Below, piece after piece: positions 57,908 to 63,405 of a stretch of DNA of 64,000 nucleotides (its first letter is position 1; each line of letters starts with the position of its first letter). The stretch covers positions 19,591 to 83,590 of the IMG/VR virus record IMGVR_UViG_2903352716_000007, one strand, 5' to 3'. Under the pieces are notes generated by a model. It ran no database searches. It saw only the letters and a list, made by a program, of their open reading frames with translations, and was not told where the DNA came from. This DNA comes from a virus. Taxonomy: Duplodnaviria > Caudoviricetes. Made by a program: the position numbers and the translations under genes.

Positions 57908-57978
57908 TGATCATGTTTTTGTGTGGGATTGAAGTGATCAAAAAAGTGATCAAAAAAAACTGATCAGTCGCGTGATCA
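57908..57978. repeat. pac-like TGATCA hexamer cluster
   Basis: TGATCA at 57908, 57935, 57947, 57961, 57973, with more at 58208, 58360, 58487 inside pacA; P1 pac uses Dam-methylated TGATCA/G hexamers. Confidence 0.7.
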
Positions 57979-57982
57979 CTCT

Positions 57983-58003
57983 AAAAACCAGACCGCCTAT
58001 CCT
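57983..58003 (+). promoter_or_regulatory. Late promoter (terminase operon)
   Basis: AAAAACCAGAC-cgcc-TATCCT. Confidence 0.65.
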
Positions 58004-58034
58004 CGCGGTAGTGTGGTTTTTAGCGGTAGGCGGC

Positions 58035-59255
58035 ATGGCAAAGATAGATTGGCATTGGCACAGGGAAAACTATAGAAAACATAAGCTTGAGTCTGGTGTG
58101 ACTTACAAGGAGTATGCCGATCACCACTCCCTTAACCCGAATACCGCGCGTCGAGAACTGAGCAAAAAGACAGGTGACGAGCCGCAGGAACCTACCGCAC
58201 CGGCACGTGATCAGACTGATGATCTGACCATCAGGAAAAGAGGGCGAAAACTCAAGCACAGCAAGGAGTTAGAGGAAATCACCGCGCAGGATGAGCGCGG
58301 CGAAACACGGGCGCCCACCAAAAATAAAAAAAATAATTCCAAAGGCACACACGCCAAAATGATCAAAAACGTACATGAGGGGGAAGTGATCCCGCATGTA
58401 CCGAAGCCACGGGGTAAGGGCAAGCAATTCGAAGACGGTAACGAGGTGAAAGTTGTCGCCAACCTTCGAGGCAAACCCCGGGTCGTTGATCAGGATGCCG
58501 CCGTTCCGTTGCTGGAGGCCGGGCTGGAAGAGTGCGAAGTCGCCACGGTGCAAAGCGCCGTTGAGCATATGAAGCTACTGCAGCGCACAACAACCAGAGC
58601 CGTTGCCCTGTTTGAAGACGAAATCTCCAACATGATCGCTGGAGGGGGCAAGGACCAAGACGACGACAAACCATCCGGCCCACACCCCCTGTTAAAGATG
58701 ACCAAACTGCTGATAGAAGTCGGTTATCGAATGGATGACCACGCCACACGTATCAGCTCCATCCGTTCCTCACGTGAAAAGCTACGGATTGACCGGCAAA
58801 AGCTCGATGCCAAAGCGTTAGAAATGGAGGTCATTGCAAATGCCTATGCGCTGCGTGACGAAAACGAGTGGGACACCGCGCAAACTGCCGAATTTATCGA
58901 ACGCCACGGGGTAAAACTGCCCGACTCAATAGCCCTTCGACTGGCTAAGGAAATCAGGGAGGCCGAGCCTGAAGTGGAAGACACCGGCGCTGTAGATGAT
59001 GACCAGTTAGAAGAAGAGGCACGTCTCTACCGCGCGGCACAGGCCGAAAAAGAGAAGTTTATACGGTCCCGCCGGGAATCCGTCGCCAGGATAGTTGATA
59101 CCCACGGGTACGGTGACACCAACAATGACGGCATCAGGCGAGAAGGGGAGTTTGAGGCGGATGAAGAGGGGCTGGACATTGATTACGACGCCACACGTGA
59201 ATTGTATGGCGATGAGGATGAGATCCCCATAGCGGCCCCGGAGGACGATGAGTAA
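58035..59255 (+). CDS. pacA: Terminase small subunit
   Basis: Start ATG 58035 (MAKIDW) downstream of the late promoter; HTH YKEYADHHSLNPNTARR; coupled to pacB. Confidence 0.85.
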   Translation: MAKIDWHWHRENYRKHKLESGVTYKEYADHHSLNPNTARRELSKKTGDEPQEPTAPARDQTDDLTIRKRGRKLKHSKELEEITAQDERGETRAPTKNKKNNSKGTHAKMIKNVHEGEVIPHVPKPRGKGKQFEDGNEVKVVANLRGKPRVVDQDAAVPLLEAGLEECEVATVQSAVEHMKLLQRTTTRAVALFEDEISNMIAGGGKDQDDDKPSGPHPLLKMTKLLIEVGYRMDDHATRISSIRSSREKLRIDRQKLDAKALEMEVIANAYALRDENEWDTAQTAEFIERHGVKLPDSIALRLAKEIREAEPEVEDTGAVDDDQLEEEARLYRAAQAEKEKFIRSRRESVARIVDTHGYGDTNNDGIRREGEFEADEEGLDIDYDATRELYGDEDEIPIAAPEDDE

Positions 59256-60766
59256 TGGCTTCCGGGAAGAAGAAAATCAAATGCGTCACGTCCGATCCGC
59301 GCTGGCGTGACATGGCGGTTCGCTACCGTCATGACTGGGGGCTGGCGGTCGTTGAATTGTTCGGGATGCAACCGAGCTGGCAGCAGGACGAAATTCTGGA
59401 GTCAGTTCAGAAAATCAAGAGCATGACTACCGTCACGTCAGGGCATGGTACGGGTAAGTCATCCCTGACCGCTATGATGCTGATGATTTACATGATCCTG
59501 TATCCGGACGCGCGTGTGGTCATCATCGCGAACAAAATCGCGCAGGTTAAGTCTGGCGTCTTCAAGTATGTGAAAACGTTTTGGGCAAACGCCGTCAAGC
59601 GTCACCCCTGGCTGCAAAACCACTTTGTACTGACCGACACCATGTTCTACGAAAGAAGCCGTAAGGGTGTGTGGGAAGTCCTCTGTAAAGGTTATCGCCT
59701 GGGTAATGAAGAAGGGCTGGCGGGTGAGCACTCCAAACACCTGCTAATCATTCTGGATGAAGCGTCCGGTATCTCTGACAAGGCGATCGGCGTCCTGACC
59801 GGCGCACTGACTGAAGCCGATAACCGTATGCTGATGTTGTCACAGCCTACGCGCCCAAGCGGTTACTTCTACGATTCCCACCACAGCCTGGCGAAGACGG
59901 AACATAACCCTAAAGGGATCTGGACGTCGATTGTTCTCAACTCCGAAGAATCACCGTTCGTAACCGACGACTTCATTATTATGAAGCTGGCGGAGTACGG
60001 CGGTCGTGACAGCATGGAGTACAAAATCAAGGTGCTGGGCCAGTTCCCGTCCGTGATAGATGGCTTCCTGTTAGGGCGTGACGCCTGTGAACGCGCGCAG
60101 CGCCGCAAGGTGTATCTGGAGAAAAACTGGGGCTGGGTGGCGCTTGCTGACGTCGGTAACGGTCGAGATAAGTCTGTACTCAACATTATGAGGATTAGCG
60201 GATACCGGGAGAAACGGCGCTTTGTTCCGTTCATGGTGCTGGAAATGCCTGGCACAATGAACCCTACCGAGTTCGGCGACTTCATAGCGAACGAATGTAC
60301 ACAAGAGAAGTTCCCCAACATCACTATTGCCGTGGATGGCGACGGCGTGGGGTCGGCGACGGCTGACCGGCTGGAGCGCAGGGGGGTGAACGTGATCCGC
60401 ATCCGTTGGGGTAAACCTATGTTCGCCAAAACAGACAAGGATCGCTTTGTCAGCCAGCGCGCCTACGCCAACATCGCAGCGCGTGACGCTATCCAGTCAG
60501 GGCGTATGAGGCTGGACTCATCCCCGAAAACAGCAGAACAAGCCGCTAAAATTCCGTGGAAGATTAACGAAGACGGGCGCGTGGCGATGATGAAAAAAGA
60601 CTACATGCGCCAGAAGATGAACATCAAATCGCCTGACCGCTGGGACACGTATTGTTTTGCTACGTTGGTAACGTATCGACCGGCTAATGATGATATTGGC
60701 GGAGATATGGAAGAGACGCGCGCAGACGCACTGGCAGAACTGGCTCAATATGATGATGTGATCTAA
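59255..60766 (+). CDS. pacB: Terminase large subunit
   Basis: Walker A SGHGTGKS, Walker B IILDEASG, nuclease motifs LADVGNG, VDGDGVG, SPDRWD. Confidence 0.93.
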   Translation: MASGKKKIKCVTSDPRWRDMAVRYRHDWGLAVVELFGMQPSWQQDEILESVQKIKSMTTVTSGHGTGKSSLTAMMLMIYMILYPDARVVIIANKIAQVKSGVFKYVKTFWANAVKRHPWLQNHFVLTDTMFYERSRKGVWEVLCKGYRLGNEEGLAGEHSKHLLIILDEASGISDKAIGVLTGALTEADNRMLMLSQPTRPSGYFYDSHHSLAKTEHNPKGIWTSIVLNSEESPFVTDDFIIMKLAEYGGRDSMEYKIKVLGQFPSVIDGFLLGRDACERAQRRKVYLEKNWGWVALADVGNGRDKSVLNIMRISGYREKRRFVPFMVLEMPGTMNPTEFGDFIANECTQEKFPNITIAVDGDGVGSATADRLERRGVNVIRIRWGKPMFAKTDKDRFVSQRAYANIAARDAIQSGRMRLDSSPKTAEQAAKIPWKINEDGRVAMMKKDYMRQKMNIKSPDRWDTYCFATLVTYRPANDDIGGDMEETRADALAELAQYDDVI

Positions 60767-60798: not shown

Positions 60799-61833
60799 TC
60801 AGTCTTTATTGATGAGAATGTTGAAATTCTTACCGCGACGGCTGCGGGTATCGCCAAACATGGAGCGCAACTCTGTGATGGAAAGGACGTTGTTATTATC
60901 AGTCGCAAATTTTCGCTCAAGTAATTTGCGATCTTCTTCTGTTAACAAATCCAGTTTACGCCGCCCCGCCTCTATCGAACGGTTGGCTTTTTCTATTTCA
61001 GCCTCAGTTTTCGCTTTAGCCAGTTTTGCTTTTGCTCGCCTTTCGAAATGCGTAATACGGCTTAGTATTGATTGTTCCACAATGGTTTTTTGCGCGGCTT
61101 TAGCCTCTGCAATTTCTATTTGGTCAATGCCGTATATATCGCCTACCGTAAATATTGAGCACTTCAGAGGCTTAATCAGACTGTATTTGTTAAAGTATTC
61201 AGTCTTAGGTTCATGAGATATTTTTATATCTTCTTTTACCCATGCAGGATGATAAATCATGACACCATGCGCACCGCAACGGGCGCGAACTGGCTCAACT
61301 TCCCCTTTGAAAACAATATCTAACAACGTGTCTTGATACCCACTAACTCGGTATCTAAATTTGTGTCCTTCAGGGTATGCCGCGAACGTTTCCATTTCTT
61401 CTTTCAGGGCTTTAACCGCTTCTGTAGTGTGCGGAAACTTCATCAGCTTTTTAATCTGTTTTTCATAGCGAGTAAGCAAGTCCTCGCGAGTATGTGTACA
61501 TGTTGTTGCTGCATTAAAAAACCCAATAGCCACAGACACTGGTTCAATGATTAACATTGGAACCGGTGAATAAATGGAAGTAGATATCGCAATGCTTTTG
61601 TTCTTTTTCATCTCAGTAGCGAGTTCAGCAAACTTCTTCCACCGAATATGTAAATCAACGGCCTTATTAAAAGTTGCCTCATCGTTTGAAAATGCGATAG
61701 GCCGAATCTTTTCGTCCTTTGCATTCCTGCTGTGACAGATGGCGAGAGAATCAACCAGTTGCAGCCAGTCTTTTTTGGTCTGCAAAAACAACTTGTACTG
61801 CTGCTCAAACATCACGTCATTAAACGCTGGCAT
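60799..61833 (-). CDS. c1: C1-like primary repressor with C-terminal extension
   Basis: YPEGHKFRYRVSGYQDTLL aligns with recalled P1 C1 YPEDEKFRMRVHGFSETML; convergent with pacB as in P1. Confidence 0.8.
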   Translation of the reverse strand: MPAFNDVMFEQQYKLFLQTKKDWLQLVDSLAICHSRNAKDEKIRPIAFSNDEATFNKAVDLHIRWKKFAELATEMKKNKSIAISTSIYSPVPMLIIEPVSVAIGFFNAATTCTHTREDLLTRYEKQIKKLMKFPHTTEAVKALKEEMETFAAYPEGHKFRYRVSGYQDTLLDIVFKGEVEPVRARCGAHGVMIYHPAWVKEDIKISHEPKTEYFNKYSLIKPLKCSIFTVGDIYGIDQIEIAEAKAAQKTIVEQSILSRITHFERRAKAKLAKAKTEAEIEKANRSIEAGRRKLDLLTEEDRKLLERKFATDNNNVLSITELRSMFGDTRSRRGKNFNILINKD

Positions 61834-62170
61834 TGTGTGATTGTCCTTTTGGTTGTACTAACACGTTCTTACCCACTTGCTACCCACATTGAAAGTAATC
61901 AACGAACACGGTAAAGCCTTAGAAAGACAGCGATCTCAATAAAGCCACACTTCAAGCACCTTACGTGTCCCATCGCCTGGCAGGTGATCACTTCAACGGA
62001 TCACTCATATGAGGTGGGTAACACTACGACGAACCGGAATCTTGTCGCCCTCATCCTGAGTTGGCTAATTCGTGAGGTCTGTCATAGGGTACATACTAAA
62101 GCAAAGCTTTCCCTTTATATATACTTTTGATTCTAAGCTCACTCACGTTTAGGCCAAATCTGATAAAAAA

Positions 62171-62204
62171 ATAACTATAGATAATGGGAGTTATATAAAG
62201 TTAC
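62171..62204. other. lox/rox-type recombination site
   Basis: ATAACTATAGATA-ATGGGAGT-TATATAAAGTTAC, 13-8-13 with 10/13 arm symmetry, 175 bp upstream of the recombinase. Confidence 0.8.
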
Positions 62205-62379
62205 GTGCTATGATCGCTCAAACGGGTTATTTAAGTGATCATTTTAGTAGCCTGTAGAGATTTGAGTCGCATTGCCTTGCCAGCGACTCTATTTTTTACG
62301 CACGACACCGTTTCTTAGAAAACATGTATTTCAGTTGGAGGCCGCGCGGCACAGCCGAGCGTTATCAAGGAGGTCATAG

Positions 62380-63405
62380 TTGAACAATCTGAGTATTACA
62401 GACATGGTTTCGCGTTTTCCTGAACTTACGGGGGTTACGCCGGAAGAAGTAGCGCAAAATCTGCGCAACTTCATGGCAGATAAGGAGGCGTACTCAGAAA
62501 ACACGTTTAAAAAGCTTATGTCCGTTGTCCGGGCGTGGGTTCCGTGGTGCCAGCAAAAGCAGATCCCCGCGTTACCGATACTGCCGGAATACGCCAGGGC
62601 GTATTTTCTTGAGCTGCACGAAGCTGGCATGGCATCCACCAGCATTACTAATCATTTTGCGATGCTTAACATGTTAGCCAGGATAACCGGACTTCCCGAT
62701 CTCACCAACAGCAACGAAGTCCAGTTGGCTATGAAGAAAATCCGGCGCCAGGCCGTGCTCGGCGGAGAAAAAACCGGACAGGCCGTCCCGTTCCGGCTCG
62801 CCGACCTGCAGTTAGCCAGTCACCTTTTGTCCCAGTCCGACCGCCTTGCTGATTTGCGCAACCGCGCGTTCCTTTACGTTGCCTACAATTCGCTGCTGCG
62901 TATTCAGGAAATTGCCCGTATCCGGGTGAAAGATTTATCCATCAACGATGAGCGGATCATCATGGACATTTCACACACGAAAACGGTCGTTACCGCCGCC
63001 GGTGTTATCAAACATTTGAGCGTTCCCGCCAGTAATGTGCTGAAACTTTGGCTCAATGCCTCGGAGCTGGTCAGCCATCCCGACGCGGTAGTGTTTTGCC
63101 GGGTATTCAAAAATGACCGGGTTCAGATCTCAACAACCCCTATGACCACGCCATCACTGGAGAAAATCTTCCAGGATACCTGGCGGTTACTGGACAAACC
63201 AATACAAACAACGAACAAGGGACGCTATCAAATGTGGTCCGGTCACAGCGCGCGGGTCGGCGCGGCACAGGATATGGCTGAACGCGGGGTGAGTATGGCG
63301 CAGATCATGCACGAAGGAACATGGTCAAAACCAGAGACGGTAATGCGCTATTTACGCCGCCTGAAAAACGAAAACAGCGCAATGAGTGACATTATGGAAC
63401 GGTGA
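62380..63405 (+). CDS. cre: Cre/Dre-family tyrosine recombinase
   Basis: AYSENT, RNRAFLYVAYNSLLRIQEI, HTKT, WSGHSARVGAAQDM, GTWSKPETVMRY; closer to recalled Dre than Cre. Confidence 0.93.
   Translation: MNNLSITDMVSRFPELTGVTPEEVAQNLRNFMADKEAYSENTFKKLMSVVRAWVPWCQQKQIPALPILPEYARAYFLELHEAGMASTSITNHFAMLNMLARITGLPDLTNSNEVQLAMKKIRRQAVLGGEKTGQAVPFRLADLQLASHLLSQSDRLADLRNRAFLYVAYNSLLRIQEIARIRVKDLSINDERIIMDISHTKTVVTAAGVIKHLSVPASNVLKLWLNASELVSHPDAVVFCRVFKNDRVQISTTPMTTPSLEKIFQDTWRLLDKPIQTTNKGRYQMWSGHSARVGAAQDMAERGVSMAQIMHEGTWSKPETVMRYLRRLKNENSAMSDIMER

Follow-up and report, generated by a model that had tools for sequence, protein, structure and literature searches.

Does the DNA between an immunity gene and a tyrosine recombinase gene in this viral contig hold a recombination target of its own, and, if it does, is the resulting enzyme/target pair independent of Dre/rox, Panto/pox, and Cre/loxP? 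The question stems from a sequence-only reading of the window (the whole stretch of 64,000 nucleotides that was analysed), where a recombinase gene and a rox-like site were taken for a new pair and a possible orthogonal tool. Judging by sequence comparison, the best explanation of the locus appears to be a Cre-type recombinase module with a 32-bp site as its substrate, to which we assign a probability of roughly 0.85. The assignment of the enzyme and the site is based on homology, intact catalytic residues, synteny with the rox–dre region of phage D6, and purifying selection. The features referred to are listed below in window coordinates.

57972–59255, + strand: pacA-like terminase gene (PHROG terminase match)
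59255–60766, + strand: pacB-like terminase gene (PHROG terminase match; 74% identity to D6 PacB)
60799–61833, − strand: c1-like repressor gene, divergent from the recombinase gene (E 2e-34 vs. D6 C1, with 28% identity across 321 aa)
62172–62203, no strand assigned: lox/rox-type recombination site of the 12-8-12 layout (single copy in the window, position of D6 rox, conserved arms)
62172–62183: left arm of the 32-bp site, TAACTATAGATA
62184–62191: spacer of the 32-bp site, ATGGGAGT
62192–62203: right arm of the 32-bp site, TATATAAAGTTA
62206–62215, + strand: candidate extended −10 element TGCTATGAT, read from the sequence, adjoining the right arm and sharing bases with a GATC motif
62367–62373, + strand: strong Shine–Dalgarno motif AAGGAGG, read from the sequence, 6 nt before the TTG start
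62380–63405, + strand: gene for a 341-aa tyrosine recombinase of the Cre/Dre family, starting at TTG (homology to Dre/Cre, PF00589, catalytic set)

The recombinase ORF is intact; an in-frame TAG stop (62377–62379) directly precedes its TTG start, and the Citrobacter orthologue likewise starts with TTG. The start codon implies low expression of the recombinase. In a tblastn search against phages, the best match was Dre of phage D6 (52% identity over the full length, E 2e-105), followed by Cre of P1, P7, and their relatives (44% identity); the identity to the Panto-type proteins of the Pantoea clade containing Panto is ~57%. Near identity to a characterised recombinase, named beforehand as fatal to the claim of a new pair, was not found. 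A phmmer search of solved structures matched only Cre and its engineered derivative Tre (E 6e-79), with residues 17–340 aligned to Cre residues 16–340, so the two-domain Cre architecture is recognizable by sequence. The phage-integrase catalytic domain (Pfam PF00589) scored 67 bits against a cut-off of 27. The residues R174, K201, H289, R292, W315, and Y324 correspond to Cre R173, K201, H289, R292, W315, and Y324, and all six are invariant in a six-protein alignment; the intact recombinase with its R-K-H-R-W-Y set, as first read from the ORF, is thereby borne out. Recognition of loxP vs. rox/pox has been separated experimentally by the positions of Cre K43, R259, and G263 (PMC4957104). The protein encoded here carries K43, P259, and K263, i.e., it is Cre-like at position 43 and Dre/Panto-like at positions 259 and 263.

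The exact 32-mer is present on the + strand, as had been expected of a rox-like site upstream of the recombinase; the start given earlier for the locus (62171) is one base before the site. It is the sole match with up to three mismatches within the 64-kb window of the ~84-kb contig, with 0 expected in shuffles, and each 14-nt half of it occurs in the window once. The site ends 176 bp upstream of the recombinase ORF, and its arrangement is that of a Cre-type target: two inverted 12–14 bp arms with two mismatches between them, an asymmetric 8-bp spacer, and proximity to the gene. The right half-site, when reverse-complemented, reads TAACTTTATATA, so the arms differ at positions 6 (A/T) and 9 (G/T) of the 12-mer, in agreement with the imperfect symmetry reported at the outset. 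No other inverted repeat with up to three arm mismatches was found in the 546-bp intergenic region.

The reference for comparison was the Dre/rox system of Escherichia phage D6 (GenBank AY753669; Sauer and McDermott 2004, as cited in PMC4957104). The rox sequence, TAACTTTAAATAATTGGCATTATTTAAAGTTA, was checked against the D6 record (L002 4909–4940) and the pEVO-rox primers; in gene orientation, its arms are TAACTTTAAATA and TATTTAAAGTTA, and its spacer is ATTGGCAT. In the 12-8-12 frame, the site considered here differs from rox at two positions in the left arm, at one in the right half-site, and at three of the eight spacer positions. The earlier count of two differences per arm plus the spacer is correct in the 14-4-14 framing against D6 rox. 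The locus is therefore not Dre/rox itself, considering 52% protein identity, three arm and three spacer differences, and a placement of the enzyme in a separate, well-supported sub-clade.

The order pacA–pacB–c1(−)–site–recombinase reproduces that of the annotated immC region of phage D6 (pacA–pacB–c1(−)–rox–dre), the c1-like gene being placed and oriented like c1 in D6 immC. The recombinase's own protein cluster is represented on one contig only, 83,590 bp in length. Over 24 kb, the window shows ~80% identity to seven phage-plasmids of Citrobacter (~84–95 kb), which bear portal, tail, and baseplate genes. Overall, the location beside c1 and pacAB and the phage-plasmid size of ~80–95 kb make it very probable that this ~84-kb contig carries a plasmid prophage of the D6/P1 kind and that the locus is its module for site-specific recombination. 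As a separate feature of the region, positions 61752–61931 (the start of the c1-like gene with ~100 bp upstream) display 98–100% identity to the Citrobacter plasmid, as compared with ~60–90% in the remainder, and represent an unusually conserved 5′ end and promoter/operator region of the immunity gene.

The immediate right flank of the site deserves attention as well. In addition to the GATC overlapped by the −10-like element, a second one is found at 62237–62240; among the relatives, those from Citrobacter, Leclercia, and D6 have a TATGAT or TATAAT hexamer directly to the right of the site, and those from Citrobacter, Leclercia, and Pantoea have GATC motifs downstream of it. In the P1 record, Dam sites and cre promoters are annotated right of lox. 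These features hint at a recombinase promoter or a Dam-sensitive control region beside the site. A generic promoter scan called no promoter between the site and the recombinase gene. At the level of the whole neighborhood, clusters of GATC motifs (TGATCAC, GGATCAC, ATGATCG, GTGATCA) occur on either side of the site, at 61984–62010 and 62210–62242, resembling the annotated Dam methylation sites by lox in P1 (L005 37–109); the Citrobacter, Leclercia, and Pantoea relatives have clusters of a similar kind.

The question of whether such sites are a general attribute of the family was approached by a survey of 165 loci with homologues, in which 900 bp upstream of each gene were scanned for a 12-8-12 inverted repeat with no more than three mismatches and ATA/TAT beside the spacer (ATA-N8-TAT). 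Among the 152 scorable loci, an upstream site was present in 140, vs. none in an equal in-gene stretch (0/152) and one in the shuffled upstream DNA (1/152). At least 70 distinct natural site variants were recorded in the sample. Their arms are asymmetric in 53 of the 70 distinct sites, and position 9 is among the positions most often asymmetric (16 sites); asymmetry, to which the sequence-only reading drew attention, is thus the common state. The diversity of the arms was 0.00–0.09, vs. 0.13–0.73 in the 40-bp flanks on each side (Pantoea, D6, and Rahnella clades). Considered together, the rox-like position, the conservation against a saturated background, the generality of the arrangement, and the within-clade diversity argue that the site is, as far as sequence can tell, a conserved and selected element and not a chance palindrome.

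The spacers behave differently from clade to clade. Their diversity amounted to 0.34, i.e., the flank level, in the Pantoea clade, and to 0.08 and 0.04 in the D6 and Rahnella clades, respectively; diversification of the spacer as a general rule was rejected in view of the low values in the latter two. In the Pantoea clade (e.g., L004 2736, L098, L093, L099, L139, L104), the arms are nearly fixed and six spacers occur: ATAAGCCT, ATAAGTCT, ATAAGTGT, ATAAACAT, ATACCCAT, and ATTACTCT. The P1, D6, and Rahnella clades have essentially one spacer per clade. Spacer variety could isolate co-resident phage-plasmids from mutual recombination.

The arms of related loci are informative of the origin of the asymmetry. 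The Pantoea-clade loci combine the left arm AAACTTTAAATA with the right half-site AAACTTTATATA, and the printed native target of Panto matches this arrangement. The native predicted target of Panto was described as having “only one asymmetry”, and Panto is highly active (PMC4957104); by our reading of the Pantoea-clade loci, this asymmetry would fall at half-site position 9, as one of the two does here. Panto thus provides a precedent of an active enzyme with an asymmetric target. In eight D6-clade loci encoding near-Dre proteins (L111, L116, L119, L121, L128, L130, L133, L106; position ~2817 in each), the left arm is TAACTTTAGATA (A to G) and the right arm is that of rox, which implies that Dre tolerates the A to G change in one arm. 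A recent origin of the site as a hybrid of a Leclercia-type left arm and a rox/pox-type right arm, via a lox-by-lox cross of two phage-plasmids, was considered and rejected because there is no identity step at the site relative to Citrobacter and both share the asymmetric arms. Since the Pantoea clade possesses a like right arm, the asymmetry is old. A loose version of the site pattern was also run against viral and metagenome collections, and the matches listed were almost all chance AT-rich stretches; after filtering for a Cre homologue, those listed were Citrobacter-type loci known before, plus another two of the Leclercia type.

The nearest relatives of the recombinase, at 89–90% protein identity, reside in phage-plasmids of Citrobacter freundii and C. 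portucalensis (e.g., NZ_CP126882.1, CP047774.1; Citrobacter protein accession WP_234105101.1) and in four IMG/VR contigs, and are labelled only “tyrosine-type recombinase/integrase”. These relatives share with the window both arms (24/24 positions, including the asymmetry), the TTG start, synteny, and nucleotide identity of ~80–83% across the window. They differ in the spacer (ATGGGGGT vs. ATGGGAGT, 7/8 identical) and in 35 amino acids, none of them at the examined DNA-contact positions. The identity of the intergenic region to Citrobacter ranges from 60 to 100%, yet both arms are retained in full; for the recombinase genes, the comparison with the Citrobacter orthologue yielded dN 0.059, dS 0.96, and dN/dS 0.06. 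By these sequence measures, the gene and both arms are under strong purifying selection.

The protein search also revealed intermediate relatives with 82% (Enterobacter asburiae, Cronobacter sakazakii), 80%, 77%, 73% (Atlantibacter hermannii), and 69% (Leclercia, Enterobacter hormaechei, Salmonella, E. coli) identity, all on contigs of ~80–96 kb and all under the same generic name. Within the 69%-identity cluster, a metagenome phage record gives one protein the annotation “telomere resolvase”; this label almost certainly denotes a mis-annotated Cre-type recombinase. Scans of viral contigs with the 82%, 80%, and 77% relatives as queries returned only loci already in the set. The genome-contig scan gave 0 loci with a single-protein query and 80 loci with an alignment-based query. 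Tn3-family transposons or IS elements were observed in or next to the pac genes, just upstream of the c1–site–recombinase module, in one Citrobacter (L001 1–4465) and one Leclercia (L003 1–713) plasmid. In the Leclercia plasmid, the large terminase gene is truncated, and the elements with such insertions may have lost packaging.

A maximum likelihood tree of 118 distinct proteins was built with a quick method and midpoint-rooted, so only its well-supported groupings were used. The window protein and its Citrobacter relatives (SH-aLRT 96) are sister to an IMG/VR contig (L010) plus Leclercia, with a support of 99 for the five rows. These five rows are nested in a 49-row Dre/Panto clade (96), and so are the Pantoea/Panto and D6/Dre groups as well as two contigs whose TAACTTTATATA site is symmetric; the Cre/loxP clade is separate. 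The Citrobacter/Enterobacter/Leclercia sub-lineage features K43-K44, N/T90, and T258, vs. R43-D44, K90, and A258 in Dre and Panto. In its sites, position 9 of the 12-mer is often G, in both arms in L010 and Leclercia and in the left arm here. The A at position 6 is limited to the window site, Citrobacter, and Leclercia; two Xenorhabdus-type sites also lack T at this position (G or A). This co-variation of residues and sites suggests a shifted arm preference of the sub-lineage. On the sequence evidence, the enzyme is a member of a separate sub-lineage of the Dre/Panto clade, with its own residues at known or suspected DNA-reading positions (Cre 43, 44, 90, and 258), and its specificity is probably not the same as that of Dre and Panto but overlaps with it.

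The mechanism envisaged for the module follows from these relationships. One recombinase monomer would occupy each 12/13-bp arm of the 32-bp site, and two sites would synapse as a tetramer. Cleavage by Y324 is expected at the spacer edges, with strand exchange proceeding in the asymmetric 8-bp spacer via a Holliday intermediate; the asymmetry of the spacer would set the direction of the site. By homology to Cre/loxP, no accessory factors should be required. Cre/loxP circularises P1 DNA and resolves P1 plasmid dimers. In a similar manner, the module would turn the linear, terminally redundant DNA into a circle once it has been injected, and would resolve plasmid dimers ahead of partition. We infer this exact 32-mer as the substrate, and likewise the cleavage positions, the cofactor independence, and the biological roles.

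A functional module, in turn, is not necessarily an independent one. The reading which, in our opinion, has slightly better than even chances is that the pair works but belongs to the specificity class of Dre/rox and Panto/pox, being cross-reactive and hence no orthogonal tool, with the spacer alone blocking the crossing with rox. Cre-type exchange requires matching spacers, so this site and rox, whose spacers differ, should not cross. For Cre/lox, crossing with the wild-type site is strongly reduced by changes of the spacer such as lox511. As to the arms, the half-sites are only two (left) and one (right) positions away from rox. In a 13 × 13 matrix, Dre recombined pox, lox8 (two half-site mismatches), and lox11 (four) (PMC10250229); Dre and Panto each recombine the other's site (PMC4957104). 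With a reported tolerance of Dre for 2–4 half-site mismatches (PMC4957104, PMC10250229), the proposal of an orthogonal tool becomes doubtful. The near-Dre loci of the D6 clade with G at the same position in one arm (TAACTTTAGATA) and the P259 and K263 common to this protein, Dre, and Panto speak for the same. Collectively, the few mismatches to rox and the tolerance of Dre and Panto make cross-reactivity with Dre and/or Panto the outcome to be expected on balance. Set against it are the above-mentioned sub-lineage residues at positions 43, 44, 90, and 258, residue 43 being a specificity determinant (PMC4957104), the left-arm A at position 6, almost unique to the sub-lineage, and the fact that cross-reactivity in the family is non-reciprocal and hard to predict, as reported in PMC10250229.

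These counterarguments open the way to a stronger claim, namely that the sub-lineage forms a specificity class of its own, which reads G and tolerates T at position 9, accepts A at position 6, and is orthogonal to Dre, Panto, and Cre. We consider it unlikely, although the residues at 43, 44, and 90 and the A at position 6 give it a real chance. If true, the enzyme would natively act on two different arms and would provide an independent tool together with a natural model of one Cre-type enzyme operating on asymmetric targets.

Somewhat less likely still is that the system is weak or decaying, so that the arm asymmetries and the TTG start reflect a relaxed function and recombination is poor, as reported for YR8 and YR9. 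At position 6 of the 12-mer, T is found in 65/70 natural left arms and 67/70 right arms, but the left arm here has A; a conserved T at position 7 of active sites is noted in PMC10250229. With one of the two asymmetries being the loss of a nearly invariant T, the activity on the left arm could be weak; in addition, about half of the predicted pairs tested in the cited work were inactive and two were weak (PMC10250229). Decay is, however, at odds with the dN/dS of 0.06, with both arms conserved at 24/24 positions, asymmetry included, across a dS of ~1, with the TTG start kept in the Citrobacter orthologue, and with asymmetric arms in 53/70 natural sites. Finally, it is highly improbable that the inverted repeat is mainly a regulatory operator of the divergent c1/recombinase region with the true crossover elsewhere: although it abuts a −10-like element and GATC motifs in a divergent intergenic region beside the immunity gene, it lies where rox, a site defined by experiment, lies in D6, shows the ATA-N8-TAT layout of the Cre family, as do 140/152 loci, is the only such repeat (up to three arm mismatches) in the 546-bp region, and the regulatory and crossover roles are not mutually exclusive.

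The Cre-type module acting on its own 32-bp site, thus preferred, is new in a limited sense. The recombinase does have its own rox-like site and is distinct from the characterised enzymes, so that part of the sequence-only reading holds; at the same time, relatives with the same arms are already public (Citrobacter plasmids, IMG/VR), and the family sample alone comprises at least 70 distinct natural site variants. The exact site with the spacer ATGGGAGT was absent from the plasmid and viral collections and from the metagenome matches listed. A published pipeline predicted ~500 Cre-type pairs, of which 17 were tested (PMC10250229). The literature search, covering the main text of PMC10250229, which names no organisms or sequences, returned no paper with these arm sequences in the context of a recombinase and no experimental characterisation of this pair. 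The pair or its Citrobacter variant may correspond to a published YR enzyme, e.g., YR8/lox8 (“2 mismatches from rox”). Overall, the pair is best viewed as a natural variant, one among many, of a familiar system, and its clean independence from Dre is unlikely.

The significance of the locus is to be assessed accordingly. Multiplexed genome engineering benefits from independent Cre-type pairs, and natural pairs of known specificity help to train designer-recombinase models; this pair, if active, would contribute to the sparsely sampled range between Dre and Panto, with changed 43/44 residues and two different arms. The catalogue of 70 site variants may aid the choice of candidates, the arms being strongly constrained and the spacers ranging from fast-evolving (Pantoea) to fixed (P1, D6, Rahnella). 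From the biological standpoint, a module for cyclisation and dimer resolution is what one expects of a D6-like phage-plasmid, so the general picture is unchanged.

Cre/loxP of P1 is one of the known systems used for comparison. The likeness includes the fold and mechanism, to be presumed from 44% identity to the solved Cre structures, a probable biological role by analogy, the position of the module between the immunity/packaging genes and ref, and the GATC motifs beside the site, as in the P1 cre regulatory region. In contrast to the site described here, loxP has CGT where TAG or TAT is found; in P1, lox lies ~420 bp upstream with cra in between, and Cre has R259 and G263 instead of P and K.

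Panto/pox of Pantoea sp. aB (PMC4957104) is another: the enzyme belongs to the same 49-row clade, it comes from the same kind of phage-plasmid, and its native site is asymmetric at 12-mer position 9, with a right arm of the same type as here, TATATAAAGTT(T/A). The differences comprise the ~57% protein identity, the left arm (AAACTTTAAATA vs. TAACTATAGATA here), another spacer, and R43-D44 and K90 in Panto.

Dre/rox differs in its 52% protein identity, in the perfect repeat of rox vs. the asymmetric arms here, in the residues R43-D44, D89-K90, P241, and A258 (vs. K43-K44, T89-N90, R241, and T258 here), and in the repressor, since the c1-like product is only 28% identical to D6 C1. The two systems nevertheless share the gene order with a 32-bp site 150–180 bp upstream of the recombinase gene (rox is 152 bp before dre; the gap is 176 bp here), the ATA|AT....T|TAT pattern around the spacer, the catalytic residues, P259 and K263 (Cre numbering), and the type of element, a plasmid prophage of ~85–90 kb.
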